64,000 bases of DNA, taken from contig NZ_CAKUBT010000007.1 of assembly GCF_934643285.1 (NCBI RefSeq), forward strand, positions 4,755 to 68,754, given 5' to 3'. Both the position numbers and the translations under genes were made by a program. Below, one piece after another: positions 42,396 to 56,841 of this stretch. This DNA comes from an uncultured Ellagibacter sp. (lineage in GTDB: Bacteria; Actinomycetota; Coriobacteriia; Coriobacteriales; Eggerthellaceae). Position 1 is the stretch's first letter. Every line of letters begins with the position of its first letter. The notes under the pieces were generated by a model, which did not search any database, was not told the DNA's origin, and saw only the letters and a list, made by a program, of their open reading frames with translations.

Positions 42396-42422
42396 AGTGT
42401 CCGTCCTTTCACGCGCCCGCGG

Positions 42423-44069
42423 TTAGCGGATGCCTTGGCTTTTGAACCGATTGATGCCCGCCTCGTCGATGACGACCTTCATCGCCCAGGGCGGCACTGG
42501 CGGAAGGTCGCGCCCCTCTTCGTCCATGAATACGAACGCTGTGTCGTAATCGGGCGGCTTTTCGGGAAAGCTCCCCAGACCGTCCGTGAAATAGATAAGC
42601 CCCTTCATCTCGGCCAACTCGCCGCGATCGCGCAGCGTCTCGACATAGTCGAACACTGGACGGAAGTCAGTCCCGCCGAACCCCCTGATGACGAAGTCCT
42701 CCATGAGCTTGTCGATCTCGCCGATATCGGTGATCCGCATATCGGACTGCACGCGCGCGTCGCATTGCACGATATGCACGTTGACCTCGGTCGTATAGGT
42801 TTCCGACTCCTTCAGGATGTCGAACGTGTGCTGGATGAATCGGCGGACCAGATCGCCCCGCACCGACCCCGACGTGTCGATCGCGATGACGAACTCGCGC
42901 ACCCGATCGGTCTCCTTGTACTCGAGCGGCTCGACAAGGGGCATGTTCCCGTAGAGCTCCATGCCGTAGGTGTAGTAGATGTAGTCGAATTCGTCCTGGT
43001 TGAGCAGCATTTCCTCGTTCATCGTCATGAACTTGCGCAGAAACTCCGTGTAGTCGTACACCTTGCGGTTCGCCACCGACAGATGCTGCATCAGGCTGTC
43101 CGATTCGCGGCCCCATTCCTTCGAGAAGGTCTCGAGGTTCATCTCGATTTCCTTCGAGATTTCCTCCCATTCCCGCTCAGCCTCGTCGTCCTCGGAATGA
43201 TCGCGTTCCTCATCCTCGCTGGTCAGCGGAACGGGCTCGGCGTTTTCACCTTCTCCATCCTCAGCATCATCGGTATCGTCCGCCGCATCTTCCGCCTGTT
43301 CGGTTTGCGAATCGTCCCTTTTATCGTCCGCGTCGGTTGGCTCGTCGGCACCGCCAGCAGATTCAAGCTCCATGTCGTCGGACTCGGGTGCTTCGCCGGA
43401 ATCGCGCTCGCTCACCTCTTCCGGCTTCTGAGCCTCACGGCGTTCAGCAGGCGAATCCTCGTCAGCATTCGACGGCCATGCCGAATGATCGTCCCTCTCG
43501 AACAGGGCAACCCAATCGTTGAGCGTCGAGCGGCCCATCCCCAGGTACTGCTGCCCGGAAGGCGCGAGAACCATACCCTTCACCAGCGCATATACCTTAT
43601 TGGGAAGAAGGCTTCCCGTGAGCATCTTTATCCTGTCGAGCGCTTCTGTTCGCTCGGCATCTTGCGGGGAGGGAAATCTCCCCGCGCACATGTCAAGCGC
43701 CACGCTTTCGGCGATGATATCGCACGTCAGGTTCCAAGCCTGGCGATTTCGGTGGTCCTTGTCGAACGGATGGCGGAAGATGCAGTGCATCACCATATGC
43801 AGGTAGTCGCGAATGAGCTCGTCGAAGCCCTCCTCGAACCGCGCGATCACACGCGGCGGATCGAACGCCACACGGCGCGCATCAGTGGTCAGCGGATACC
43901 GCGCCCCCGCACGAATCGGCAGGTTTTCCATGCGCCAAAGGGCCATGTCCAGGAAACGGAACTTCAGCATGAGCTGAACGCGACATTCGTCGAGGATGTC
44001 CCGAGCGAGCTCGTCTTCGCGCGCGCGTCGCGCAAGCTTCGTGTCAGCTATCGTCTCATGCTCCGACAT
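42423..44069 (-). CDS. DUF2201_N (putative metallopeptidase-like) + VWA-like (DUF2201) domain protein
   Basis: N-domain has HMVMH where HExxH is expected. Poly-acidic linker at aa ~200-305. VWA core with MIDAS AIDTSGS and GFGGTDF. Confidence 0.8.
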   Translation of the reverse strand: MSEHETIADTKLARRAREDELARDILDECRVQLMLKFRFLDMALWRMENLPIRAGARYPLTTDARRVAFDPPRVIARFEEGFDELIRDYLHMVMHCIFRHPFDKDHRNRQAWNLTCDIIAESVALDMCAGRFPSPQDAERTEALDRIKMLTGSLLPNKVYALVKGMVLAPSGQQYLGMGRSTLNDWVALFERDDHSAWPSNADEDSPAERREAQKPEEVSERDSGEAPESDDMELESAGGADEPTDADDKRDDSQTEQAEDAADDTDDAEDGEGENAEPVPLTSEDEERDHSEDDEAEREWEEISKEIEMNLETFSKEWGRESDSLMQHLSVANRKVYDYTEFLRKFMTMNEEMLLNQDEFDYIYYTYGMELYGNMPLVEPLEYKETDRVREFVIAIDTSGSVRGDLVRRFIQHTFDILKESETYTTEVNVHIVQCDARVQSDMRITDIGEIDKLMEDFVIRGFGGTDFRPVFDYVETLRDRGELAEMKGLIYFTDGLGSFPEKPPDYDTAFVFMDEEGRDLPPVPPWAMKVVIDEAGINRFKSQGIR

Positions 44070-44078
44070 GTCGCCCCC

Positions 44079-46385
44079 CTACAAATCGAAGTCCATCAAC
44101 TGGCTGCCGAAGAATCGGCGCTTCACTTCAAGAAGGTATCCTGTCATCGCGGCATCCTGCACATCACCCGCGCGCTCTACCACGATATCGATATTATCTT
44201 TTGTGAGATAGCCCAAATCAAGCATGTCATCTACGACCTGCCGATCGTCATGACGCGCCGCCTGCACGATGATGTCGACGAGGTTGCTCCTCATCACGCG
44301 ATCGCACATGCTCCTGTTCGAAGGCGTCATGAGAACAGGGTCTTTCAGCCGCGCGATGATCATCTTGCTCTGGTCGTATAGACCTATGCCGCCGTCTACC
44401 ATCGCGTCATAGCTCGAGCCGCTCACTATCGAGCCGTCGTAATGGTCGAGAATCGCCTCGACGCTCACATGATCGGGGACGCTGAATGCAAGCTCAATCT
44501 GCTTGACGCTTCGGTCAATCTCGGGAAAGCGCACGTCGAAGCTGGTATGACCCTCAATCGGCTCTTCAAGGTCAATGTGGATCAGCTCGATAAAGCACTG
44601 GAAGGCAAGGCCGCGCATTCCCACCAGCTTGATACGGTCGGAAAGGTAGAGCTCGCGAATGTTCCTGTCGCCGTTGAAAGCGTAGGGCGCGATGGCGACA
44701 ACCTCCTCGGGGATTCTCACGCATTCCCGAGAATCGGTGTTCACTACGACGCGGGCGTGGCCATTGCTCCATTTCTCGAGCAGCATGCCGCCCTTCTCCT
44801 CGTAGCGCGCATTGCCCTGCGCCACCGTTATCTCGCGAAGCGTCGGCTGGCGTTTCCCGTTGTGCGCGTTGTAAGTGACGAGCGCGTTCTCCTCGATTTT
44901 CTCGAGCGACGCGGGAATGTGAATCGATTCGAGCGCCGTGTCCATGAGCGCCTCAGCGCCCATCTCGGCAACGCCCTCCGGGATAACGACGCGCCGCAGC
45001 GCTCGGCAGCCCTTGCATGCGGCGGCACCGATAACGCGAACACCTTCGGGCAGCACCACCTCTTCGAGCGCCGCATGGTTGAGCAGCGCCCCCGAGGCTA
45101 CCTCCGTCGTCCCCCTCGCAGCCTCAAATCGCTTCGCCTCGCCATCGAACAGGCACAACAGCTTCATGCCGTCGCCTTGAAGCTCATAAAGAGCGCCAGA
45201 TTTATCGAGCACGAGCCGCTCGGAACCAGGCTCCATTGTAAACGTCGCACCCTCGCCCGCGTAAACCAGCTTCGTCCGCACAGCGATGGGGTAGCCGATT
45301 TCAACAATGCTGTTCGGAATCCTTAAGGTTGATATACCCGAATTGCTGAACGCATCCGCTCCGATGACCTGCAGCTTCTCGTTGAGCGAGACACCCTCAA
45401 GGGAGGCGCAGGCAAAGAATGCGCGCTCCCCGATTTCCCTCAAAGCAGAAGGCGCCTCGAAAGTTCGCACCCCAGTGCGAGCGAAAGCGTAGGGGCCTAT
45501 TACTTCAACGCTGTTCGGCAAGTCGACCTTCGCAAGCTCGTCAAAGGAGCTGAACGCCTTCCGAGCAATCGTCGTACACGAGGGCGCAACGGCGTACGAA
45601 AACAGGGGGCACGCAAGCGCCACGAGCGTTTCGCCGTCTTTCGAATAGATTGCAACCCCGTCGGTTTGCAGCCAAGGATTTTCAGGGTCGATCGATATTC
45701 CAATCAGCCGACTCTTCTGGAACGTTCCCGGTTCAACGCGGGAAAGCGCCGCGCCGAACTCAACATACTCAAGGTGAGGGATATCGAAGAGGCTCGGACC
45801 GACCTCTTCCAAAAGCCCCGGCATGCGCAATCTCGAAAGAGAAGGGCATCCACGAAACCAGTCGGACTCGAAAGTCGCAAGGTTACACGGCAGCACAACG
45901 CATTCCAAACGCTTGCAGAAGCGGAAAGCGCAGCCCCCGACAAACTTCACTTCATCTGGTACGACGATCGACGTCACGTCTTCCAGACCTGAGCAGGCAT
46001 CGGGTGCCAGCGAGCGAACCGGCAAACCCTCGATCGCATCGGGAACAACCAGCTCTCCCGCCGCACGAATACAACGATCGATGCGAACCGACGATTCCGA
46101 CAGCACGACGTATTCCCAATCGGTTCCAGCTTCATCAATGAAATGACAAAGCTCAGAAGTGCATGCATCCTGAATCGCCTGCGCTCGCAGAGCAGCCTCG
46201 CGGCGCTCACGAATTCGCGCCTCCGTCGAGATGACCTGCTCCCTTGTCGCCTTTCCGTCGTTGAGCGGCATAGGGGTAAAGCCTCCAAAGCTCACATCGA
46301 GCTTGCTAACATCGAGCGACTTGTTACGATTCACCTGAGCCTTAGCGTAGGCGATATGAGGAATCCCTAATAGACCGTCTGCCAT
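44079..46385 (-). CDS. BspA-type leucine-rich-repeat (LRR_5) protein, predicted cytoplasmic
   Basis: 768 aa with many repeats of the pattern ..F..C..L..V.LP..L..IG..AF... No signal peptide, TM helix or anchor is visible. RBS GAGGTG. Confidence 0.8.
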   Translation of the reverse strand: MADGLLGIPHIAYAKAQVNRNKSLDVSKLDVSFGGFTPMPLNDGKATREQVISTEARIRERREAALRAQAIQDACTSELCHFIDEAGTDWEYVVLSESSVRIDRCIRAAGELVVPDAIEGLPVRSLAPDACSGLEDVTSIVVPDEVKFVGGCAFRFCKRLECVVLPCNLATFESDWFRGCPSLSRLRMPGLLEEVGPSLFDIPHLEYVEFGAALSRVEPGTFQKSRLIGISIDPENPWLQTDGVAIYSKDGETLVALACPLFSYAVAPSCTTIARKAFSSFDELAKVDLPNSVEVIGPYAFARTGVRTFEAPSALREIGERAFFACASLEGVSLNEKLQVIGADAFSNSGISTLRIPNSIVEIGYPIAVRTKLVYAGEGATFTMEPGSERLVLDKSGALYELQGDGMKLLCLFDGEAKRFEAARGTTEVASGALLNHAALEEVVLPEGVRVIGAAACKGCRALRRVVIPEGVAEMGAEALMDTALESIHIPASLEKIEENALVTYNAHNGKRQPTLREITVAQGNARYEEKGGMLLEKWSNGHARVVVNTDSRECVRIPEEVVAIAPYAFNGDRNIRELYLSDRIKLVGMRGLAFQCFIELIHIDLEEPIEGHTSFDVRFPEIDRSVKQIELAFSVPDHVSVEAILDHYDGSIVSGSSYDAMVDGGIGLYDQSKMIIARLKDPVLMTPSNRSMCDRVMRSNLVDIIVQAARHDDRQVVDDMLDLGYLTKDNIDIVVERAGDVQDAAMTGYLLEVKRRFFGSQLMDFDL

Positions 46386-46487: not shown

Positions 46488-46521
46488 AAAACGGCCCGAC
46501 GCGAGGGTGTCGGGCCGTTTT
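46488..46521. terminator. Bidirectional-looking terminator hairpin
   Basis: aaaa-acggcccgac-gcgagggt-gtcgggccgt-tttt. Lies 13 nt after the stop of the 46534..46869 gene, isolating it from the LRR operon. Confidence 0.65.
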
Positions 46522-46533
46522 CGTAAAATGCGA

Positions 46534-46869
46534 TTACTTTCGGGGAACGCCAGCAGGGTCGACCGGGCGACGAGAGGAAATCTCATCGCCAAACGTGATG
46601 CAATAGCGCATACCCTTGAGGGTTACGTACAAGCAGGCAATCTCATGCTTCCCGCCCTTGTTGAATACCTCGTAGGTCAGCATCTCGCGATCAATCATCG
46701 GTTGATAGATTTCGCTATCGACAACCTTCTCAAGCAACATGTTCGTCGCCTCGCGGCCAAGCTCGTCCTGCTTCAGAGCGATGTTGTACAGAATATCTTC
46801 TTGAGCTTCCGTAAGACGCCCGAGCTCTTCAACTTCAGCGCGAATTTCCTCTTCATTCGTCATAGCCAT
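46534..46869 (-). CDS. Hypothetical 111-aa protein
   Basis: ATG 46869, 11 nt after AAGGAGGA. Lower GC. No motif recognised. Confidence 0.45.
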   Translation of the reverse strand: MAMTNEEEIRAEVEELGRLTEAQEDILYNIALKQDELGREATNMLLEKVVDSEIYQPMIDREMLTYEVFNKGGKHEIACLYVTLKGMRYCITFGDEISSRRPVDPAGVPRK

Positions 46870-47014
46870 ATCGAAAGCAATCCTCCTTGAGTAGGTAGCG
46901 CGAAAACGCATAACTCTGCTGATGGAAGTATCTTAGCATTGGAAAATCGCCATTTGAGCAGGTCGAAGCTAGTGGAACAGTATGGCTGAAATCGTTTCAT
47001 CCGCATTTTCGGGA

Positions 47015-47048
47015 CAAAAAAAGAACCCCTTCTTACGAAGAGGTTCTT
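47015..47048 (-). terminator. Rho-independent terminator ending the molybdoenzyme operon
   Basis: Minus strand reads aagaacctcttcgtaagaaggggttctt followed by ttttttt. Confidence 0.6.
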
Positions 47049-47094: not shown

Positions 47095-47370
47095 CTAGAT
47101 GCCGTTGTAGCCCTTCGAAGGATCGGAGTCGCCAACGCCATTAGCGGTGTCGCCAGCTTCATTGCCGGTACGCTTCGTAGAGGTGTATCCACCCCAAGCG
47201 CGAGCAATGAACTTGTCCTTCACGAAGAAGATCTGAGCCTTCATGAGGTCAGCCTGAGCAATGCCGTGCTCAGCGAGGACTTCGTCCTTGCTCTTGCCAG
47301 CCTCGAGGCCTGCGTTCAGCTCAGCAGCTGCAGCAGCAGCGTCGAGCTCAAAAAATTCATCGCGGGTCAT
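47095..47370 (-). CDS. Hypothetical 91-aa protein, third gene of the molybdoenzyme operon
   Basis: ATG 47370 after AAGGAGGG. MTRDEFFELDAAAAAAELNAGLEAGKSKDEVLAEHG... No motif recognised. Confidence 0.45.
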   Translation of the reverse strand: MTRDEFFELDAAAAAAELNAGLEAGKSKDEVLAEHGIAQADLMKAQIFFVKDKFIARAWGGYTSTKRTGNEAGDTANGVGDSDPSKGYNGI

Positions 47371-47453
47371 GTTATCCCTCCTTATTGGTCTATCACACGA
47401 TGCCGTGGTCGCCAGTCGCCTAGCGACCACAGACATCTTAACACACTAAAGAG

Positions 47454-47813
47454 TTACAGCTGGAAGAGAACCATCGGACGATCGAACTCTGCCATCTTGG
47501 CGATCATGTCCTCGAGGGTACCGTAGTACATCGAAGCGGACTCGTCGACCTGCACCGCGAGCGGACGCTGGCCGGCCTTGTCGCCATTGGTTCCCCAATG
47601 CTCGGAGAAGATGGACGTCGGGCAAGGAATGTAGAACCACTCCCAAGCGTCGCCGTCATTACCTTCGCCCTTCTTGAAGGGACCAACCTGAACTTCCTTG
47701 ATACCGAACTGTTCGAGAGGAAGGCCAAGCTCTTCTTTGCAGCCGATCTCGGCGGCATGGTTACCGGAGTAGTACGTGTAGTCTACGAGCAGTGCGTACT
47801 TCTGATCTGCCAT
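47454..47813 (-). CDS. Degenerate, truncated ferredoxin-like (4Fe-4S beta-subunit-derived) protein lacking cluster ligands
   Basis: N-terminus KYALLVDYTYYSGNHAAEIGCKEE aligns with the beta-subunit consensus (K/R)Y..(.)D...CxGCxxCxxACKxE. Three of the four Cys are replaced (Y, N, A). Only 2 Cys in 119 aa. RBS GAAAGGAAG. Lies 17 nt after the molybdoenzyme stop. Confidence 0.55.
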   Translation of the reverse strand: MADQKYALLVDYTYYSGNHAAEIGCKEELGLPLEQFGIKEVQVGPFKKGEGNDGDAWEWFYIPCPTSIFSEHWGTNGDKAGQRPLAVQVDESASMYYGTLEDMIAKMAEFDRPMVLFQL

Positions 47814-47830
47814 TTATGCCACTTCCTTTC

Positions 47831-50146
47831 TTAGTCGTCGGAGTTCAGGCTATGGACGCGGCGGATGTTGCACATAACACCCTTGTACGGAGCGCCAAAG
47901 CCAAGCTTACCAATGTTCTGATGCGGCACGAGGCTGTTGAAGTTGGACTTCCAAACGCCGAACAGGTTGGGCTCTTCGCCGTCCTGCTCAGGGAACCACC
48001 AGCCGTGAGCGCAGTTGAGGATACCAGGCTTCATGACCGGCGTGATCTCAGCCTTGAAGCGAGCCTCGCCGAACATGTTGTAAACCTCAATCCAGTCACC
48101 GTCGGTCACATCGTACTCTGCAGCGGTCTCCGGATTGATCTGGCACCACGGCCACGGATCGATCTGGCGCAGGGACGGAACCTGACGATGCTCAGAATGG
48201 AAGGAGCTGTAGCGACGGGAACCAGAGGTGGTGATCAGAGGATACTGACCAGCCAAGTCGGGCTTGCTGATCGGGCTGTAGTTCGGCTCCTCGTAGTACG
48301 GCAGCGGATCCTCGCCCCAGGATTCGTAAAGAATCGAGTAGGCTTCGATCTGGCCGGTAATGGTGTTGAAGCCGGGAGCACCGTCGAAGCGGAGCATGCC
48401 CTTCGCGTACTTCTCGTACTCGAAGCCATGAGCACCAGGCTGATAAAGGCCGAGCTCCTGGAAAGTCTTCCAGTCGAAGCCGAGCTCCTTGAGCTGATCG
48501 CTGAAGAAGTCTTCGACTGCCTGCTGAAGAGCAGCGAGGTCAAGCGACTTGCCGTCTGCAGGCTTGTACCACGGCCACCACTCGGGGTTGAGGCGCTGAC
48601 CGAACATGAGGCAGATCTCGATGTCGGACTTGCACTCGCCAACCGTGAGAGCCTTGTTCATGGGGCCCATGAACACGGTGTTGCGGCCATAGTGGGTGAG
48701 GACGATGCCATCATGCTCAGCCCAGGTGGACATGGGCAGGAAGTAGTCACCGAGAGCCATGGAAGTCGGCGTCTGGGTGAGGTCCTGGATGACGACGAAC
48801 TCGAGCTTCTGGAGAGCCTTGTGCCAACGCTTCGGCTGAGCGGAGCAGGTCGGCGTCAGGAAGTTGGAGCTGTTGAACCAGCCCATCTTCAGAGCGTACG
48901 GCTGATCCGTCTCCATGGTGTTCAGGGTCTCGTCAGGCTGGGTGGTAGCCATGCCGGTGGACAGGCCAGGCCACTGCGCAGCACCGATACGCTTCGACCA
49001 AACTTCGTCGGTCATAGCGCCGCGCTGCTCCATGCGCCACTTGCCGAGAAGTGCCGACGGAGGACCAAGGGTAAGTCCGCCAGGACGGTCGATAGAACCG
49101 CACATAGCAGCCAAGATGATGAAGGACTGGGACAGCTGAACGCCGTTCTTGTTCTGGTCGAATGCCAGACCCCAAGCCCAACCGATAGGACGCTCGGTGC
49201 CGATGATGTGAGCGACGCGCTTGATTTCCTCAGCGTCGACCGTGGTGATCTCGGCGACCTTGTCCACAGGATACTCAGCAGCGCGAGCCTTCAGCTCGTC
49301 AACGCCGTAGATCCAGTTCTCAACGAACTCATGATCGTACTCATCGTTCTCGAAGAGGAGGTTGATGAGGCCGAGTGCGAGAGCCGTGTCGGTCTGCGGG
49401 CGAACCTGCAGGTTGATGTTGCCATCATGAGCGCCGACCCAAGTGATGCGGGGGTCAACGGAGATGATGTGCGTGCCAAGCTTCATCATGTCGACGAGGC
49501 AGTGGCCGAAGAAACCGTCGCCGTTGGAGGGCAGCGGCTCCTTGCCCCAAACCACAACCCACTTGGACAGCGTGTAACGCGGGTCATGATAAGAACCGGG
49601 CAGGTGACCAGCGTAGTCGAGCTCAGGATAGCCTGCGCCGAGCACGTAGTCAGAGATGGAGCAACGAGGACCGTAGCAGGACCAGCCGGACTGCGTGTAG
49701 CAGCAGTTGGGGGACTGCAGAACGGAGAACGTCAGCGCGTAGTAGTAGATGCAAGCCTCACGACCCGTACCACCGAAGCAAACGATGGACTCGGGGCCGT
49801 AGGTGTTCTGGAAGTAACGGACCTTCTCGCAGATCGTGTCCATTGCCTCGTCCCAAGTGGTGCGCTCCCACTTGTCCTTGCCGCGATCTTCGAACGCGCG
49901 CTTCATCGGGTAGATGACGCGATTCGGAGAATGGGTGTACTCACGAAGAGCAAGGTTCATGGCGTTAACACGACCAGTGGTGATCGGGTTATCGTCGTCG
50001 CCTTCGACACGGATGAGCTGGTCGCCCTTCGTAACGACCTTGACACCGTATCCAACCGGGTGAGATCCCGGAGGAGACCAAGTGTTGCTACGAGTGACTA
50101 CGGTACCGTCTTCAAGCTCGGTACGCCACTGCTTACCATATGCCAT
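47831..50146 (-). CDS. Molybdopterin (bis-MGD) oxidoreductase-family catalytic subunit, cytoplasmic, without the N-terminal FeS-cluster motif
   Basis: Start moved to ATG 50146 after GGAAGGAAG (MAYGKQWRT...). MopB core (ISVDPRITWVGAHDGNINLQVRPQTDTALALGL) and C-terminal molydop-binding barrel (INPETAAEYDVTDGDWIEVYN..). The usual CxxCxxxC...C region reads TWSPPGSHPVGYGV...GRVNAMN. No RR signal peptide. Confidence 0.85.
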   Translation of the reverse strand: MAYGKQWRTELEDGTVVTRSNTWSPPGSHPVGYGVKVVTKGDQLIRVEGDDDNPITTGRVNAMNLALREYTHSPNRVIYPMKRAFEDRGKDKWERTTWDEAMDTICEKVRYFQNTYGPESIVCFGGTGREACIYYYALTFSVLQSPNCCYTQSGWSCYGPRCSISDYVLGAGYPELDYAGHLPGSYHDPRYTLSKWVVVWGKEPLPSNGDGFFGHCLVDMMKLGTHIISVDPRITWVGAHDGNINLQVRPQTDTALALGLINLLFENDEYDHEFVENWIYGVDELKARAAEYPVDKVAEITTVDAEEIKRVAHIIGTERPIGWAWGLAFDQNKNGVQLSQSFIILAAMCGSIDRPGGLTLGPPSALLGKWRMEQRGAMTDEVWSKRIGAAQWPGLSTGMATTQPDETLNTMETDQPYALKMGWFNSSNFLTPTCSAQPKRWHKALQKLEFVVIQDLTQTPTSMALGDYFLPMSTWAEHDGIVLTHYGRNTVFMGPMNKALTVGECKSDIEICLMFGQRLNPEWWPWYKPADGKSLDLAALQQAVEDFFSDQLKELGFDWKTFQELGLYQPGAHGFEYEKYAKGMLRFDGAPGFNTITGQIEAYSILYESWGEDPLPYYEEPNYSPISKPDLAGQYPLITTSGSRRYSSFHSEHRQVPSLRQIDPWPWCQINPETAAEYDVTDGDWIEVYNMFGEARFKAEITPVMKPGILNCAHGWWFPEQDGEEPNLFGVWKSNFNSLVPHQNIGKLGFGAPYKGVMCNIRRVHSLNSDD

Positions 50147-50593: not shown

Positions 50594-51370
50594 ATGGCCA
50601 CTCAGCAATTCACCCTTACTTCTTACGATCCTGTCTACGCGATCGCCGAGGAAGTCCGCATTCCGGAGGACACGATCCGCGAGACCGCTGTCCGCTGGCT
50701 TGAGATCAACATCTGCAAGGAGGGCGAGAAGGCGAAGCTGACCGACGGCTGGGTCAACGCCCACTGCGAAGATTTCAAGTCGGTCGACGAGCTTTTGATT
50801 TTCATCCGCTACAACATGTACCGCGACAATCGCGAGGTTCAGGAGCTTGCCGACCAGGATGCTATCTGCAAGGAACTCTCCAAGCGCCTCGTCGAGGAAC
50901 TTCCCGCCGATCTCGTGGAGAACTCCCTCTATGCGTCGACGATGCGCATGGAAGAGATGATCAGCCGCCAGGGCATGACGAAGGAAGAGTTCTGCGAGCA
51001 GCGCGGCATCACGCCCGAGCAGCTCGACACTGACGTTCGCGAGCGCACCATCCAGAGCCTGAAGGAGGATTCCGCTCTGGCTGCATACGCCGACCATGCC
51101 AATTACACGCTCGAGGCCGAGGACTTCTACGCCATCATTCCAGGCGACTCCATTCAGGACAAGGCTTACAAGCGCCGTCAGATCGAGCTCGATGGACGAC
51201 TTCCCCAAATGGAGGAATACGCCCGCAAGACCAAGGCGCTGAAGGAAATCATGGAGAACGCCATGATCAAGCGCAAGGCAACCGACACCGAGTGGCTGCG
51301 CTACGGCGACACGAGCAAGGACGTGCTGAACGCGAACAAGCAGTTCCCCGAGAACTTCGTCACGCTGTAA
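50594..51370 (+). CDS. Trigger-factor C-terminal-domain-like protein (no ribosome-binding or PPIase domain)
   Basis: 258 aa, RBS GGGGAGGA. ...LVEELPADLVENSLYASTMRMEEMISRQGMTKEEFCEQRGITPEQLDTDVRERTIQSLKEDSALAAYADHANYTLEAEDF... parallels the TF C-domain pattern seen in tig at 52117..53427. The call is tentative. Confidence 0.5.
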   Translation: MATQQFTLTSYDPVYAIAEEVRIPEDTIRETAVRWLEINICKEGEKAKLTDGWVNAHCEDFKSVDELLIFIRYNMYRDNREVQELADQDAICKELSKRLVEELPADLVENSLYASTMRMEEMISRQGMTKEEFCEQRGITPEQLDTDVRERTIQSLKEDSALAAYADHANYTLEAEDFYAIIPGDSIQDKAYKRRQIELDGRLPQMEEYARKTKALKEIMENAMIKRKATDTEWLRYGDTSKDVLNANKQFPENFVTL

Positions 51371-51532
51371 GCGCCCCTGCATCACCTAACATGCGAAAGC
51401 CGCTGCAAAGCTGCAGCGGCTTTTCTTTCGCCTGAGCGAGGCTCTGTTTGGCTCGTATAGGCACAGCAAGGCCCCCGCATCTGCGAGGGCCTTTTGTTTC
51501 ACTTGAAATGGATGTGTTGCTTCGGCGATGCG

Positions 51533-52051
51533 CTATCGGTAGGACTCGCCCTGGTCGCCGCCGAGGAGCTTCGACTGCTCCTTCATATGCTGGCGCTTCT
51601 CGTGTTCCGAGATGAAATTCTCAGGAGCCGCCTCGACGCTCTTGATCTCTACCTCGAAGGTGAGGTCCTTGCCTGCGAGCGGGTGGTTCAAGTCGAACTT
51701 GGCGTTGCCGCCCTCAATCTCGATGACGGTGCCGAGCGTCGGTTCACCCTCGTCGTTGGCCATCCACAAGCGAGAGCCCACTTTGATGTCGCGCTTGGGA
51801 ATCTGGTGCGTCGGGATGACGACGACGTAATCATCGAGGTACTCGCCGTACGCCTCGTACTGGTCGACGGTGAACGTTTTCTTCTCGCCTTCGATGCCTT
51901 CCATGGCGAGGATTTCCTTCTCGAAACCGTCGATCGCCATGTCCATGCCTGTCTGGAAAACCATGGGGTTTTCCTCGGTAGCATAGCCGAAAACGGTACC
52001 ATCTTCCAACTTGCCCGTGTACACGAGCGTTACGGTAGATCCAAGATCCAT
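51533..52051 (-). CDS. slyD: FKBP-type peptidyl-prolyl isomerase, SlyD-like
   Basis: Start trimmed to ATG 52051 (MDLGSTVTLVYTGKLEDGTVF...). IF-insert and NHPLAGKDLTFEVEI motif. Confidence 0.85.
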   Translation of the reverse strand: MDLGSTVTLVYTGKLEDGTVFGYATEENPMVFQTGMDMAIDGFEKEILAMEGIEGEKKTFTVDQYEAYGEYLDDYVVVIPTHQIPKRDIKVGSRLWMANDEGEPTLGTVIEIEGGNAKFDLNHPLAGKDLTFEVEIKSVEAAPENFISEHEKRQHMKEQSKLLGGDQGESYR

Positions 52052-52116
52052 GTTTATCTCCCTTTTCCGGCGCCCGGCCAAGGTGCCGCAGCGCGCCTGA
52101 GCGTTTCTATGCTGGC

Positions 52117-53427
52117 TTAAGCCTCTTCGTCGACTACGGTCACTTCTGCGGTCTGTACAAGCCAGCGAGAAGCCTTCGAATGGCGGCAGACCTTGCGAAG
52201 CTCGGCCATGCGGTTCGCCTTTTCCCACTTCTCGCGCGTTGCGATGGCGTCGTCTTCCTGGGCAAGTTCCTTCTCGATGTCTTCCTCGGTGACGTCGATG
52301 CCCTTCTCGGCGATGAGGGCCTCGAGGGCGCAATCGATACGGGCGCGGCGAATTGCCTCTTGCGTCACGTTCTCCTTGATCTCATCGGCCTTGCCGTTGT
52401 TGTTGAGGAGCCATTCCTGCAAAGAGGTGCCCTGCTTCTCGAAGCTCTGCATCATCTCGCGGCCGACGTCCTGGCGAATGAAGTCCACATAGTATTGCGG
52501 AACGTCGCCCACAAGGCGATTAGCGAGCGCGTCAACCGCACGCTGCACCATAAGGCCCGGGAGCTCGGCTTCTTTATGTTGATTGATCTGGTGGCGCATC
52601 TGCTTGCGCATATCCTCGGCGTCCATGCAGCCCACCTTAGCCGCGAGCTCATCACCGATCTCGGGAACGATCTTGCGGCGGAATTCCTGAATCTCGACGT
52701 TGGCATGCAGCTGGCCATCACCGAACTGCGTGTTGCCCTCCTCGTCTTTCGCCTCGAAATCGAATTCGAGAGTATCGCCGAGCTTGCTGCCGACAAGATG
52801 CTCGTCAAAGGACGCGGGCATGGAACCAGAACCCAACTCGATCATGCGCGTCGCATAGCGAAGGCCGTTCACGGCGTTGCCGTCTTGCGTAACCGTCACG
52901 GCCGCCGAGACAACATCGCCCATTTCTGCAACGTGTTCAGGGTCGTCGATCTTTTCAAAGGAATGGTAGACATCCTGGAGATGCTTGAGCTGGCGCTCGA
53001 CTTCCGCATCGGTAGCCTCGTCGGGCGGCATCTCGATGGAAACGCCGTCGTAGCTCGAAAGCTTCATCTGCGGCACCACGGCGCCGGAGACGGTGAACGT
53101 GAACGGCTGGCCCTCGACGACGTCGTTATCAACGTTGAAATCCGGTTCCCCTACGAAGATCACGTCTGCGTCGTCAAGTGCCTTGAAAGCGTTCTCGTTG
53201 ATGAGCATCTCGGCGACGCCGCCCATGGCGTTCTTATGGCCGCCAACGTTCTGCTCGAGAACCGCGCGAGGGGCCTTGCCCTTGCGGAACCCGGGAATAT
53301 CACGCTGGGCGATCTCGGCGAAGAACTTGTCTGCCGCTTCCTTCACCTCGTCGGCAGACGCAACCAGCGTGAGAACTAGCTCCTGCTTGTCCCCATCGTC
53401 TTCGCGAACTCTGTCTTTAACCTGCAC
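52117..53427 (-). CDS. tig: Trigger factor
   Basis: 436 aa. N-terminal ribosome-binding signature IPGFRKGKAPR, then the PPIase and C-domains. Confidence 0.9.
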   Translation of the reverse strand: MQVKDRVREDDGDKQELVLTLVASADEVKEAADKFFAEIAQRDIPGFRKGKAPRAVLEQNVGGHKNAMGGVAEMLINENAFKALDDADVIFVGEPDFNVDNDVVEGQPFTFTVSGAVVPQMKLSSYDGVSIEMPPDEATDAEVERQLKHLQDVYHSFEKIDDPEHVAEMGDVVSAAVTVTQDGNAVNGLRYATRMIELGSGSMPASFDEHLVGSKLGDTLEFDFEAKDEEGNTQFGDGQLHANVEIQEFRRKIVPEIGDELAAKVGCMDAEDMRKQMRHQINQHKEAELPGLMVQRAVDALANRLVGDVPQYYVDFIRQDVGREMMQSFEKQGTSLQEWLLNNNGKADEIKENVTQEAIRRARIDCALEALIAEKGIDVTEEDIEKELAQEDDAIATREKWEKANRMAELRKVCRHSKASRWLVQTAEVTVVDEEA

Positions 53428-53600: not shown

Positions 53601-53834
53601 TTACATGCCAGGAGCCTTGGGAGCGCCAGGGGCAGCCGGGGCACCAGGAGCAGCCGGAGCGCCGGGAGCGCCAGGGGCAGCCGGGGCACCAGGAGCGCCG
53701 GGGGCAGCAGCCGTCAGATCACCTTTGCAGAAGGGGCAGTTCTTGAGAACCATGCCGCCCATAGCCTGGATGGCCTTGCCGCAGTGCGGGCACTTGCTCG
53801 GGCCAGCCGATGCGTCTGCAGGACGAAAACACAT
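53601..53834 (-). CDS. Small zinc-ribbon protein with Ala-Pro-Gly repeat tail
   Basis: 77 aa, strong RBS AAAGGAGGA. CPHCG...CPFCKG, then (APGAPG)n encoded by a DNA tandem repeat at 53606-53710. Confidence 0.5.
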   Translation of the reverse strand: MCFRPADASAGPSKCPHCGKAIQAMGGMVLKNCPFCKGDLTAAAPGAPGAPAAPGAPGAPAAPGAPAAPGAPKAPGM

Positions 53835-55161: not shown

Positions 55162-56841
55162 CTATTCCGCGAAGTAAGCCTTGCGATGCGGGGTAGCGAA
55201 GATGAAGAAGTAGACGAACGGAAGCAGAACACCGACTGCCATGAGGGGCAGAGCGATCGGGAGCTTCGACCAACCGGTGATGGCCAGCGGGCACACGATG
55301 CAGGTGATGAACAGGAACGCGATCACGACGAGCATGATGATGAAGTTCGTCATGCCGGTGTCGGAAGCATCGGTCTTGCCGTCGCCAGCGAGCTCGTCCA
55401 TGGACTTACCGCCGGTTTCCTTAACGAACAGGAGGCAGCAGATGAAGCCGAGAACGAACGGAACGATGAGGACGAGAACGACCGACGACCAGTTGGTAGC
55501 GCCTTCAGCGGTCTGGAACATAGCCATACCAGCGATGCCGCCGAGGACGATCGAGGAGGCGGAGCCGCCGAAGCGGGCAAACGCCTGGCACCACGAAACG
55601 CCGGTGTTGCGGATTGCGGTCGGGTAAGACTCAGGCATCAGCGGCTGAACAGCGGTGATGGCGTAGTTCAGAGCGAAGCCGAAGAGAAGCATGAGGGCAA
55701 TCGACAGACCGAAGTTGTTCGGGACAACGAACACGGAGCAGATGACGATTGCGACGATGCAGAAGATCCAGGAGAACGCCAGGTTGCGCTTACGGCCGAT
55801 GCGGTCAGCGACGAAGCCGACGCAGCAGTTGGAGGCGATAGCAGCAACGTTGTTCCAGGTCTGGAGAGCAACAGCCTCAGACGGGGTGTAGCCAATGCCC
55901 TTGAACCAGGTGGGCAGCCATGCGTTCATGCCGTACACGCAGAACTGGCCAACGAAGTAAGCGGTCCAGATAGCAGCGGTCGGGACGATGAACTTCTTGG
56001 AGAACAGGATGTTCGGGGAGGTCTTGGCAGGCTTCGGCGGAACGACGAGGAGCTTCGGGTCGAAGTGGGTCTCTTCCTGGCCAGCGGAGCGCTGCAGATG
56101 GTTGAGAGCCTTGCAAGCCTCTTCCATGCGACCGGCGTTGGCGAACCAGTGCGGGGTCTCATGCATGAAGAAGTGAAGCACGATTCCGTAGATGATGGGC
56201 AGAGCGCCGATCAGGTAGCAGAGGCGCCAGTTGGCATACATGGTGGCAGAGGAACCATCAGCGTTGAGGTAGGTGACTTCGTTGGTGAAGCCGCCCAGGA
56301 TCGGGGTTGCGGTGTTGCAGATCGGGTTGCCGATAACGCCAGCGAGAACCCAGCCAGCAACCATGCCCGCCATGCCGATCGTCACGAAGACGCCGCGCTG
56401 CTTGGACGGAATCGTCTCAGAGAACACGGTGGTGACGATGGGGATGCAGGAGCCGACGCCGAAGCCGGCGATCAGGCGGAATGCTGCGAAGAACACGAGG
56501 TCGTTCGCGAAAGCCTGGGGCAGGGTGAACAGACCATAGAAGATAACAGCGATGGTCAGCATCTTCTTACGGCCGATCTTGTCGGACAGGATGCCGCCGA
56601 CTGCGCCGCCGAGAACCATGCCGAGCAGTCCCCACGTGGTGAGCGAGCCCATGAGAGCACCCGGGTTCGGGTTGTCGGGCCAGAACGTATGTGCAACGAA
56701 CAGGTTGGTGGTGTTAACGACCATGAAGTCGTAACCATCGAAAATCATAGCGAAGATCATGAGGAAGAACATAAGCCACGTGTGGCCGTTAACTCCCAAA
56801 TGGTCTACAACCTCTGAAACGGTGAATTCCTTACCGTTCAT
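55162..56841 (-). CDS. MFS transporter, aromatic-acid/H+ symporter-like
   Basis: Start trimmed to ATG 56841 after AAAGGAGGGA. 12+ TM helices. Motif A-like GILSDKIGRKK. FDGYDFMVV and FRLIAGFGVGSCIP are typical of AAHS/sugar-porter-type MFS. The substrate call is inference. Confidence 0.8.
   Translation of the reverse strand: MNGKEFTVSEVVDHLGVNGHTWLMFFLMIFAMIFDGYDFMVVNTTNLFVAHTFWPDNPNPGALMGSLTTWGLLGMVLGGAVGGILSDKIGRKKMLTIAVIFYGLFTLPQAFANDLVFFAAFRLIAGFGVGSCIPIVTTVFSETIPSKQRGVFVTIGMAGMVAGWVLAGVIGNPICNTATPILGGFTNEVTYLNADGSSATMYANWRLCYLIGALPIIYGIVLHFFMHETPHWFANAGRMEEACKALNHLQRSAGQEETHFDPKLLVVPPKPAKTSPNILFSKKFIVPTAAIWTAYFVGQFCVYGMNAWLPTWFKGIGYTPSEAVALQTWNNVAAIASNCCVGFVADRIGRKRNLAFSWIFCIVAIVICSVFVVPNNFGLSIALMLLFGFALNYAITAVQPLMPESYPTAIRNTGVSWCQAFARFGGSASSIVLGGIAGMAMFQTAEGATNWSSVVLVLIVPFVLGFICCLLFVKETGGKSMDELAGDGKTDASDTGMTNFIIMLVVIAFLFITCIVCPLAITGWSKLPIALPLMAVGVLLPFVYFFIFATPHRKAYFAE

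Follow-up and report, generated by a model that had tools for sequence, protein, structure and literature searches.

Gordonibacter-type catechol dehydroxylases are cytoplasmic enzymes with an alpha subunit of ~770 aa, followed directly downstream by the gene for a small subunit that binds Fe-S clusters and shuttles electrons, with an MFS transporter and a LuxR-type regulator encoded nearby. The best described relative of the locus analyzed here is the hydrocaffeic acid dehydroxylase of Gordonibacter pamelaeae 3C (Gp Hcdh, or Unk-9), whose subunits HcdhA (C1877_07565, 770 aa) and HcdhB (C1877_07560, A0A369M407, 119 aa) were purified together in active form (Bae et al. 2024, PMC11585353). Gp Hcdh is an enzyme of gut bacteria, and its substrate, hydrocaffeic acid, is a metabolite linked to coffee and vegetables. 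Gp Hcdh converts 3,4-dihydroxyphenylpropionate to 3-hydroxyphenylpropionate, a two-electron reductive para-dehydroxylation, with methyl viologen reduced by dithionite serving as the donor in the assay. By ICP-MS it contains equimolar Mo, one per protein. Hydrocaffeate induces the enzyme >250-fold, and a knock-out in G. urolithinfaciens abolished both hydrocaffeate dehydroxylation and hydrocaffeate-driven ATP formation. In the same report HcdhB is termed an "accessory subunit," and a membrane-bound LuxR regulator is described as co-localized with unk-9 (PMC11585353).

The window, that is, the whole 64,000-nt stretch of Ellagibacter DNA that was analyzed, carries a cassette of the same kind. We read it, by analogy with Gp Hcdh and with a probability of roughly 85%, as an hcdhAB operon with a conserved third gene in an Ellagibacter-like member of the Eggerthellaceae, encoding a cytoplasmic, Gordonibacter-type hydrocaffeic acid dehydroxylase. 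Enzyme identity and reductase function are, through the orthologue, already known; what the alignments add to prior knowledge is the history of cluster loss in the Hcdh clade and the purifying selection on HcdhB. The relevant features of the window are as follows:

47831..50146, minus strand: hcdhA, catalytic Mo-bisMGD subunit, 771 aa (open reading frame, Pfam, and orthology)
47454..47813, minus strand: hcdhB, 119-aa accessory subunit (hhalign and orthologue peptides)
47095..47370, minus strand: third gene, 91 aa, with an AAGGAGG ribosome-binding site (open reading frame and conservation)
47021..47048, minus strand: intrinsic terminator of the hcdhA-hcdhB-third gene unit (12-pair stem, 4-nt loop, then TTTTT)
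55162..56841, minus strand: MFS transporter gene (Pfam MFS_1, 8e-46; Sugar_tr, 4e-33)
[quoted passage not shown]

The three open reading frames of the operon are co-directional and keep the coordinates of the initial annotation, with hcdhB starting 17 nt past the hcdhA stop. That annotation had the 91-aa gene complete the operon, as is borne out by the terminator (47048..47021) that follows it. Of 80 loci, 78 have a gene for the 119-aa protein after alpha and 75 have the third gene; some of the loci that lack them end right after alpha. Upstream of the operon, the window has genes for a trigger factor, a SlyD-like FKBP, and a Trigger_C-like protein, whereas in other genera a Zn-ribbon gene lies directly upstream of the cassette.

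The assignment to Hcdh is carried by direct comparison with published sequences and peptides. HcdhA is identical at 395/399 positions to a sequence of SSN cluster 9, the Gp Hcdh cluster, in Table S1 of PMC11585353, which places it in that cluster, and at 351/399 positions to the representative of the Table S1 entry listing GpHcdhA; to Gordonibacter sequences it is 88 to 89% identical. Peptides reported for the purified enzyme recur in the window proteins, with SNTWSPPGSHPVGYGVK, VNAMNLALR, and MAEFDRPMVLFQL identical and YALLVDYTYFSGNHAAEIACK matching at 19 of 21 residues (PMC11585353). The GpHcdhA peptides are identical to HcdhA residues 20-36 and 60-68, that is, across the Cys-less segments discussed below, and those of GpHcdhB match window HcdhB at 13/13, 19/21, and 24/27 residues. 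The 119-aa frame is thus translated in the orthologue and its product co-purifies with alpha, which settles half of a question raised by the initial annotation, namely, whether the small frames are expressed; for the other half, the orthologue's proteomics table (Table S4 of PMC11585353) holds no peptides of the 91-aa protein. The purified enzyme gave 483 PSMs for A and 128 for B, and Fe-S proteins in traces only, so no canonical Fe-S partner co-purifies beyond that level.

HcdhA begins with MAYGKQW and its frame is preceded by the ribosome-binding site GGAAGGAAG. Its N terminus (MAYGKQWRTELEDG) has no RR motif, in keeping with the lack of a twin-arginine signal claimed at the outset and with a cytoplasmic Gordonibacter-type enzyme of ~770 aa. 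The protein matches PF00384 (4.4e-22) and PF01568 (7.4e-18), both above gathering scores, and this MopB core and C-terminal barrel place it in the Mo/W-bisPGD (DMSO reductase) superfamily. The Fe4S4 domain PF04879 was not found in the Pfam search. In NCBIfam, matches to every named family were sub-threshold. Membership of the BisC/TorA/DorA families was considered and rejected on scores (TIGR00509 bisC_fam, 132.7 bits with the cut-off at 1017.55; torA, 90.7 with the cut-off at 1465), as was membership of acetylene hydratase, given the absent FS0 ligands and the reductase activity of the orthologue. Acetylene hydratase (2e7z) is nonetheless the best PDB match (E = 1.9e-74), in three HMMER stretches (residues 71-407, 400-479, and 555-726) of partial identity.

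The initial annotation held that all four Cys of the FS0 motif are replaced in this 771-aa MopB protein, and the alignment agrees: the ligand positions are N21, Y33, N61, and N64, so that the ligands of a type I/II FS0 [4Fe-4S] cluster are absent, and no Cys ligands are supplied from elsewhere. At these positions 47 to 53 of the 53 cysteine-bearing relatives have Cys, against N, Y, N, and N in 53 or 54 of the 54 members of the window clade; the N/Y/N/N state also occurs in ~100 genome loci, within a Cys-state matrix that spans 168 loci. The ancestral motif of the relatives is C-x11-C...C-x2-C, not the canonical CxxCxxxC, and is still recognized by PF04879. The putative Mo ligand Cys157 (SGWSCYGPR) is invariant in 54/54 clade members and 53/53 relatives. 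This segment aligns with MYMCIGN of 2e7z, which we take to hold the tungsten ligand Cys141. Overall, 281 of 404 family-conserved positions (70%) are unchanged in HcdhA; 26 have switched, 10 of them within the first 100 residues. Alpha dN/dS is 0.08-0.16.

The 119-aa protein had been called a relic of a ferredoxin beta subunit that lost three of four Cys in its first motif, and this is what we find. Motif I reads YSGNHAAEIGC in HcdhB and CTGCHSCEVAC in relatives. The remainder of the four-cluster protein had been thought missing. This proved right for motifs II and III, which are missing throughout the small-subunit subfamily, cluster-bearing members included, but not for motif IV: the C-terminal half of HcdhB corresponds to the motif IV region of PsrB/DmsB-type subunits, where it keeps none of the four Cys. 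In comparison with the PsrB/DmsB/FdnH beta subunits, which have motifs II and III, the family aligns to PsrB residues 1-40 (motif I) and 115-150 (motif IV), and the eight ligand positions that remain in HcdhB have no conserved Cys. At seven of these eight positions HcdhB of the window has a residue other than Cys; the remaining C24, as well as C63, varies across the family, in which no Cys is invariant. When Pfam and the PDB were searched with the HcdhB sequence by itself, nothing matched. Homology to the Fer4_11-type fold emerges through the 8-Cys small subunits of relatives, to which HcdhB aligns with an hhalign probability of 99.96% (E = 4e-39, 39% identity) and whose profile matches PsrB 2vpw_B (6e-12), FdhB (3e-11), and ArrB (5e-9), as well as EbdB. 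HcdhB keeps none of the four-Cys groups of that fold and, by the same token, does not fit the description of a small subunit that binds Fe-S clusters and shuttles electrons. By profile homology, then, HcdhB is a descendant of a ~111-aa two-cluster ferredoxin subunit with motifs I and IV. Its dN/dS of 0.04-0.07 indicates strong purifying selection. Because this selection persists, and because the Mo-ligand Cys and most conserved residues of alpha are kept, HcdhB is most likely a structural piece that keeps alpha together.

The third gene is conserved as well. Most homologues among the 120 matches listed keep the length of 91 aa, dN/dS is 0.16-0.35, and a homologue (37% identity, E = 2e-10) is also found in cluster-bearing relatives. 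AlphaFold2 predicts a small helical domain and a hairpin (pLDDT, 80-90 at residues 1-50) followed by a disordered tail (<50 at residues 60-72). Despite this predicted disorder, the sequence of the tail hardly varies (ARAWGGYTSTKRTGNE...SDP..G). A PDB fold search gave no match for the 91-aa protein.

In relatives of ~57% identity FS0 is present and the small subunit has two further clusters, whereas in the Hcdh clade all twelve ligand Cys are gone or no longer conserved. As read from these alignments, Hcdh descends from a subfamily whose alpha has FS0 and whose small subunit, a ~111-aa mini-ferredoxin, has two [4Fe-4S] sites. FS0 alone has been lost several times, independently, in other lineages, and is therefore dispensable in this subfamily; loss of all three clusters is confined to the Hcdh clade. 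The literature on these dehydroxylases that we consulted does not mention this loss. The main text of PMC11585353 does not mention the iron content of Gp Hcdh, and neither the absent Fe-S ligands nor the third gene come up in the portions of that report used here. A cluster with non-cysteine ligands might conceivably be present in Gp Hcdh.

As no internal wire is left, electrons would have to come directly from an external donor. Two electrons would pass from that donor straight to the Mo-pterin, with methyl viologen presumably playing this part in vitro. The donor might be a redox protein that docks on the enzyme, or else a small reductant entering the substrate funnel in ping-pong fashion. 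In BisC/BSOR, DorA, and TorA, cluster-less Mo-bisMGD reductases, the metal is likewise reduced directly by an external donor. We offer tentatively, and as rather doubtful in its full form, the proposal that a reductase with three clusters gave rise to Hcdh as a naturally wire-less enzyme, whose Mo is reduced directly by an outside donor, with the 91-aa protein or the vestigial B as docking adaptor. If true, Fe-S relays are dispensable for catechol dehydroxylation, and the human gut's most transcribed catechol dehydroxylase takes its electrons by a route undescribed in its enzyme family. How a soluble cytoplasmic reductase that lacks a wire could be coupled to ATP formation is difficult to see unless a membrane partner takes part.

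Alternatively, the wire may be external. It is quite possible, if at less than even odds, that a dissociable ferredoxin, flavodoxin, or hydrogenase- or formate dehydrogenase-linked carrier docks on the vestigial FS0/HcdhB surface, the 91-aa protein possibly recruiting it. The very strong purifying selection on HcdhB is as expected of an interaction surface, and the third gene, with its nearly invariant tail, is widespread both in Hcdh loci and in cluster-bearing relatives. Hydrogen and reduced carriers promote Gordonibacter dehydroxylation according to the literature, and ATP formation on hydrocaffeate calls for a membrane link. However, neither a redox partner (beyond traces) nor the third protein appears with the purified enzyme in the proteomics table of PMC11585353, no redox-protein gene is conserved beside the operon in the loci compared, and a cluster in a docked protein would probably lie farther from the pterin than canonical FS0.

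As to the substrate, the initial annotation took the MFS and LuxR genes as a hint of a phenolic or aromatic compound, and the Gp Hcdh orthologue bears out a phenolic one. Both kinds of gene are indeed nearby, as is typical of the Gordonibacter type, and the small-subunit gene is directly downstream of alpha. A distance of ~5-7 kb, which includes chaperone genes, separates these two genes from the operon. Homologues of the transporter occur in the flanks of 28, and of the regulator in 38, of the 88 other loci compared; in relatives, MFS genes come directly after the cassette, and in the literature they adjoin Gordonibacter-type dehydroxylases. The MFS gene likely encodes a phenolic acid importer or exporter, a link made by neighborhood, and would move substrate or product. 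The regulator combines ~10 hydrophobic segments with a GerE helix-turn-helix at its C terminus (residues 487-540); it is likely the counterpart of the hydrocaffeate-responsive Unk-9R and would sense hydrocaffeate.

Catechol dehydroxylases are highly substrate specific, and Ellagibacter encodes many, including Eadh enzymes for urolithins. The window enzyme could thus be an Hcdh-like paralogue shifted to another catechol, e.g., a urolithin or another phenylpropionate, which we consider highly improbable. It shares the SSN cluster of Gp Hcdh, is 99% identical to a listed member, and falls in a monophyletic clade (100% bootstrap) with 80-91% identity across genera and the same gene order in 75-78 of 80 loci. 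In published descriptions the Eadh enzymes, unlike Hcdh, are co-localized with 4Fe-4S proteins. Moreover, cluster 9 lists an Ellagibacter protein, E. isourolithinifaciens is named as an unk-9 carrier, and several other strains carrying unk-9 dehydroxylate hydrocaffeate (PMC11585353).

The initial annotation, noting the absence of a wire, favored a non-redox or internally balanced, hydratase- or transhydroxylase-like reaction on an aromatic substrate over a reduction. The loss of all Fe-S ligands, the non-redox acetylene hydratase as nearest solved structure, and the net non-redox aromatic reaction of pyrogallol transhydroxylase in the same superfamily speak for this reading, which we now judge very improbable. 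Acetylene hydratase keeps FS0, so FS0 loss is no mark of hydratases, and cluster-less Mo-bisMGD reductases such as BisC, DorA, and TorA are well known. The net reaction catalyzed by the purified orthologue is a two-electron reduction that needs reduced methyl viologen, and the knock-out loses both activity and hydrocaffeate-driven ATP formation (PMC11585353). Its Mo content, activity with methyl viologen and dithionite, induction, and knock-out phenotype together make it a reductase.

There is next to no chance that HcdhA is a degenerate MopB pseudoenzyme without molybdenum cofactor, like QrcB or the C-terminal domain of NuoG/Nqo3, as its sub-threshold NCBIfam matches might suggest, given invariant Cys157, 70% of family-conserved positions kept, and dN/dS of ~0.1. 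In some degenerate MopB proteins, loss of FS0 ligands does go along with cofactor loss. The orthologue, however, is catalytically active with equimolar Mo (PMC11585353).

Taken together, Hcdh can be set against several known systems. In type III enzymes the ligand is Ser and the whole FS0 domain is missing, whereas Hcdh has a Cys ligand and an FS0 domain without cysteines; with BisC/BSOR, DorA, and TorA, in which Mo-bisMGD is the sole redox center, it shares an analogy of working and, for BisC/BSOR, the cytoplasmic location. Pyrogallol-phloroglucinol transhydroxylase (4v4c) resembles Hcdh in its polyphenol ring substrate, cytoplasmic location, and large subunit without Fe-S cluster, but three [4Fe-4S] clusters are retained in its beta subunit, and its reaction is net non-redox; it matches the small-subunit profile only faintly (E = 0.059), and in a published phylogeny the catechol dehydroxylases are set apart from it. 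Acetylene hydratase of Pelobacter acetylenicus is likewise cytoplasmic with a Cys ligand to the metal, but it is a monomeric, non-redox tungsten enzyme that keeps FS0, whereas Hcdh is a Mo reductase with a B subunit and no FS0. In acetylene hydratase, the catalytic Asp lies beside the second Cys of the FS0 cluster.

Closer still are Dodh, Cldh, Eadh1-3, and relatives from Sporomusa, Desulfitobacterium, Desulfosporosinus, and Desulfuromonadales. Like Hcdh, these are cytoplasmic enzymes without a Tat signal, whose alpha subunit is ~745-790 aa long; they share a small-subunit gene directly after alpha, often a small third gene, usually adjacent MFS and regulator genes, and acetylene hydratase as nearest structure. 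The Gordonibacter-type dehydroxylases keep four Cys in the N-terminal domain (GCHNGCG...RLCLRC in Dodh; TCGW...GCG...RLCVRC in relatives), and the relatives examined have 8-9 Cys in the small subunit (CxxCxxCxxxC plus CxxC...CxxxC), in contrast to the Hcdh clade, which has none of either. Gp Hcdh itself shares with the window the same A/B pair, the Cys-less peptide segments, and the membrane LuxR type of regulator.

The cassette consists of three minus-strand genes and lies near genes for a transporter and a regulator, as follows.

50146..47831, minus strand: hcdhA, the 771-aa MopB catalytic subunit (alpha), start MAYGKQW, with a GGAAGGAAG ribosome-binding site ahead
47813..47454, minus strand: hcdhB, the 119-aa small subunit, starting 17 nt past the hcdhA stop
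47370..47095, minus strand: the third gene, 91 aa, with an AAGGAGG ribosome-binding site ahead
47048..47021, minus strand: terminator, a 12-pair hairpin with a T-run, which closes the three-gene unit
55162-56841: MFS transporter gene near the cassette
57507-59183: membrane-bound LuxR-type regulator; about 10 hydrophobic segments, GerE domain at the C terminus

Judging from their spacing and the terminator, the three genes are probably co-transcribed. No conserved operator was found upstream of hcdhA, where only the ribosome-binding site aligns across genera, and a search of the window for a paralogue of the cassette returned none.

The cassette encodes an already known and biochemically characterised enzyme, the orthologue of the Gordonibacter hydrocaffeic acid dehydroxylase, Gp Hcdh. 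Catechol dehydroxylases of the Gordonibacter type are cytoplasmic enzymes without a Tat signal, smaller than those of Eggerthella; they pair with a small 4Fe-4S protein and are encoded near MFS transporters (PMC7028382). Gp Hcdh, which belongs to sequence similarity network (SSN) cluster 9 ("Unk-9"), pairs a catalytic subunit of 770 aa with an "accessory subunit" (Bae et al. 2024, PMC11585353). Its published carriers are Gordonibacter, Paraeggerthella, Ellagibacter isourolithinifaciens, and Raoultibacter, and cluster 9 includes an Ellagibacter protein (PMC11585353). The genera of our 80 genome loci overlap these carriers and also include Adlercreutzia and Slackia. The window alpha is identical at 395 of 399 residues to one cluster 9 sequence of Table S1 (PMC11585353). 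Table S4 of the same paper reports proteomics of natively purified, active Gp Hcdh, with peptides SNTWSPPGSHPVGYGVK and VNAMNLALR for GpHcdhA (A0A369M2P7, C1877_07565, 770 aa) and YALLVDYTYFSGNHAAEIACK and MAEFDRPMVLFQL for GpHcdhB (A0A369M407, C1877_07560, 119 aa). The former pair is identical to window alpha residues 20-36 and 60-68, precisely the segments without cysteine, and the latter pair matches window HcdhB at 19/21 and 13/13 residues; the 119-aa open reading frame is thus translated in the orthologue. The preparation yielded 483 peptide-spectrum matches for A and 128 for B, with Fe-S proteins present in traces only.

All of the functional evidence that follows was obtained with the orthologue (PMC11585353). 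Hydrocaffeic acid induces Gp Hcdh >250-fold, and a membrane-bound LuxR regulator is co-localised with its genes. With methyl viologen and dithionite, purified Gp Hcdh reduces hydrocaffeate to 3-hydroxyphenylpropionate (kcat, 28 per min; Km, 0.24 mM); it contains equimolar Mo by ICP-MS. A frameshift knock-out in G. urolithinfaciens lost both the activity and the ATP formation that hydrocaffeate drives. Among G. pamelaeae genes in human gut metatranscriptomes, those for A and B rank as the two most expressed. Its discoverers describe Gp Hcdh as the most highly transcribed catechol dehydroxylase there, and the enzyme inactivates hydrocaffeic acid, an anti-inflammatory metabolite. The initial annotation had guessed at a phenolic substrate, which hydrocaffeate bears out, and had inferred a non-redox reaction, which the reductase activity contradicts. 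The Mo content and activity in the literature likewise led us to reject readings of the enzyme as a hydratase or as a pseudoenzyme.

In the alpha subunit, Pfam detected the MopB core (PF00384) and the dinucleotide-binding barrel (PF01568) but no match to the Fe4S4 domain PF04879, and every named molybdoenzyme family of NCBIfam scored below threshold. The top solved-structure match was acetylene hydratase (2e7z; E, 1.9e-74), whose MYMCIGN segment, with the metal-ligand cysteine, aligns with SGWSC157YGPR of alpha. Homologues fell into two groups: those at least 70% identical, which lack PF04879, and those about 57% identical, which mostly have it and come from Peptococcaceae, Sporomusa, Desulfitobacterium, and some Coriobacteriales. 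We aligned 54 sequences of the former group, the Hcdh clade, with 53 of the latter, the cluster-bearing relatives. In the relatives, positions 21, 33, 61, and 64 are cysteines; 53-54 of the 54 clade sequences have N, Y, N, and N there, confirming that the N-terminal [4Fe-4S] site (FS0) has lost its cysteines, whereas Cys157 is invariant in both groups. The ancestral FS0 motif is itself unusual, being TCGWSPPGDHPVGCG...GRLCVRC rather than CxxCxxxC. We also looked in this alignment for compensating cysteines elsewhere in alpha and found none. Those common in the Hcdh clade but not in the relatives (positions 106, 148, 712, 123, and 216) are each variable, and the invariant ones are all present in the relatives too, so ligands are not supplied from elsewhere in the protein.

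Direct searches of the 119-aa protein against Pfam, NCBIfam, and PDB sequences gave no match; its homology emerged only from the genes beside alpha in distant relatives and from profile comparison. The cluster-bearing relatives have the same three-gene cassette, with a small subunit of 111-123 aa bearing CxxCxxCxxxC near the N terminus and CxxC...CxxxC in the C-terminal half, cysteines that would suffice for two [4Fe-4S] clusters. When searched as a profile, these subunits hit PsrB (2vpw_B, 6e-12), FdhB, ArrB, and EbdB. The N-terminal part corresponds to motif I (PsrB 1-40) and the C-terminal part to motif IV (PsrB 115-150) of the four cysteine groups of PsrB/DmsB-type beta subunits. The HcdhB family aligns with the relatives' subunits over 109 columns (hhalign probability, 99.96%; E, 4e-39; 39% identity). 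In window HcdhB, the motif I stretch is YSGNHAAEIGC and that of motif IV is free of cysteine; the one remaining cysteine of motif I, Cys24, varies within the family. Because the relatives match motifs I and IV only, motifs II and III are missing from the whole subfamily, and what is peculiar to Hcdh is the loss of all ligands. The earlier description of HcdhB as a ferredoxin relic therefore stands as to homology and cysteine loss but not in holding that the rest of the protein is missing, since the motif IV region is kept and motifs II and III are lacking subfamily-wide. A search of 1.84 billion representative proteins with an HcdhB profile found one representative at E <1e-30, the sole fully Cys-less full-length match among the best 150. 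The AF2 model of HcdhB is poor (pLDDT 62), and its best PDB fold match, PsrB, is not significant (E, 0.17) and was given no weight.

The third gene was found in 75 of the 80 loci and also occurs in the cluster-bearing relatives (37% identity; E, 2e-10). Its 91-aa product had no direct match in Pfam, NCBIfam, or PDB sequences. In the AF2 model, four short helices plus a hairpin (pLDDT 80-90) precede a tail of low confidence that is predicted to be disordered. The tail, A56-R-A-W-G-G-Y-T-S-T-K-R-T-G-N-E71...S82-D-P...G (in the C-terminal third; window 47095-47200), is nevertheless invariant in 29 homologues that are 69-92% identical to the 91-aa protein, and homologues from the Fe-S-bearing relatives have a related one, PMRGYQTT.RSGNE. 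This conservation suggests a partner-binding peptide. No significant PDB fold match was found for the model; the top ones were weak winged-helix proteins (E >2), and a DNA-binding role was not adopted. As none of its peptides appear in Table S4 (PMC11585353), the protein is not a stable subunit of the purified enzyme, and it is possible that it acts as a maturation factor, adaptor, or regulator.

We scored the ligand positions over 168 loci. All Hcdh-clade loci with a readable motif have N/Y/N/N in alpha and a Cys-less B. Relatives from Firmicutes, Desulfuromonadales, Acidobacteriota, and termite-gut Coriobacteriales have four cysteines in alpha, and the open reading frame called for their small subunit typically has 8-11. 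Two Coriobacteriia lineages have lost FS0 and kept the B clusters, namely the type of homologue P0119 (C..W..N..G), which includes Raoultibacter massiliensis, and that of P0063 (C..H..D..T); loci in this state are L085, L086, L142, L145 (R. massiliensis), L146, and L087/L101. A Trichloromonas metagenome-assembled genome (L140) has lost both FS0 and one B cluster, keeping the ligands of the other. The subfamily thus holds a natural series of 3 (the Desulfitobacterium/Sporomusa type), 2, 1, and 0 clusters, with Hcdh at 0. In a neighbour-joining tree that left out the N-terminal 90 columns, the Hcdh clade had 100% support and L140 was nested inside a Cys-bearing group (95-100%), so FS0 was lost more than once.

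P0051 (locus L088) and P0079 (L089), which combine FS0 with a Cys-less B, were rejected as intermediates, since their identity to the window protein is bimodal (~30-55% N-terminal versus 82-100% C-terminal), and are treated as chimeric assemblies or recombinants. P0187 has a similar hybrid look for the small subunit. In the metagenome contigs of L088, L089, and P0187, alpha looks like another dehydroxylase paralogue in its N-terminal part and is Hcdh-like in the remainder; L088 also has a frameshift in hcdhB. These hybrids may be either assembly chimeras between paralogues or real recombinants.

Hcdh is not in decay. The relatives have 404 positions conserved at 90% or more; the Hcdh clade has the same residue at 281 of these and has switched to another fixed residue at only 26, 10 of them within the first 100 residues. 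Against five genera, alpha gave a dN/dS of 0.08-0.16, B one of 0.04-0.07, and the third gene one of 0.16-0.35. HcdhB is thus more constrained than alpha, which fits a structural role in the complex in which the two co-purify.

Published accounts differ on the Fe-S question. The word iron is absent from the main text of PMC11585353, which names 4Fe-4S for the Eggerthella enzyme only; a JACS paper gives the Gordonibacter type in general an Fe-S subunit; and a review (PMC11574389, section 12) says that the Gordonibacter catalytic subunits Dodh and Cldh lack an Fe-S motif. However, the Dodh sequence (Table S1, PMC11585353) has four N-terminal cysteines (GCHNGCG...RLCLRC), and close relatives score on PF04879, at odds with the review. 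The Dodh motif is non-canonical rather than absent, and Hcdh is the one that truly lacks it. In the available portions of the literature on Gp Hcdh, the total ligand loss in both subunits seems to go undiscussed.

Just past the operon terminator is a fourth small gene (46534-46911, minus strand; ~110-125 aa; MTNEEEIRAEVEELGRLTEAQEDILYNIALKQDELGRE...) with its own terminator (46521..46488), which adjoins the cassette in 72 of 88 other loci compared. A family search gave nothing above threshold, only a sub-threshold ElaD/SseL_N match, and none of its peptides occur in the Gp Hcdh proteomics table; it may be merely syntenic. Beyond it lie three large minus-strand genes in a row (39960-46385). Their products are an 811-aa fusion of a MoxR-like AAA ATPase with a SAM methyltransferase, a 548-aa DUF2201 protein of VWA-like/metallopeptidase-like character, and a 768-aa leucine-rich-repeat protein of the BspA type; the genes for the last two adjoin the cassette in 37-43 loci. 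On the other side, three chaperone-type genes (50594-53427), for a Trigger_C-like protein of 258 aa (plus strand), a SlyD-like FKBP that also matches the IF domain, and trigger factor, separate the operon from a Zn-ribbon gene (53601-53834, minus strand; 77 aa, CxxC...CxxC and then an (A/P)PGAP repeat tail). The Zn-ribbon gene is directly upstream of hcdhA in Adlercreutzia, Gordonibacter, Raoultibacter, Paraeggerthella, and Slackia, so the window carries a rearrangement or insertion here. A homologue lies 3' of the cassette in a termite-gut Coriobacteriales locus (L083, 8456-8761), and FKBP genes are also near the cassette in L087 and L089.

Taken together, these comparisons indicate that Hcdh has lost every Fe-S ligand of its relatives, those of FS0 and of both small-subunit clusters. 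The enzyme itself is known; what remains of interest is that a working reductase, which from the function of the orthologue still supports ATP formation, has lost a three-cluster wire completely and in this clade specifically. With its graded relatives, it offers a comparison series on whether the clusters are needed, and it cautions annotators against reading non-redox chemistry into a MopB enzyme because its Fe-S motif is missing. As shown for the orthologue, the membrane LuxR regulator would sense hydrocaffeate and the operon be induced, and HcdhA, with Mo-bisMGD and the Cys157 ligand, would remove the para-hydroxyl in a two-electron, two-proton reduction. Sequence and selection suggest that the clusterless HcdhB would serve as a scaffold. 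The electron route to Gordonibacter-type dehydroxylases is stated to be open (2026 preprint, bioRxiv 10.64898/2026.04.18.719167). We infer that an outside donor would pass electrons directly to Mo, as methyl viologen does in vitro, with a docking redox protein or a small reductant as the putative physiological donor. By analogy, Hcdh may thus resemble BisC/BSOR, DorA, and TorA, in which Mo is reduced directly by an outside donor.
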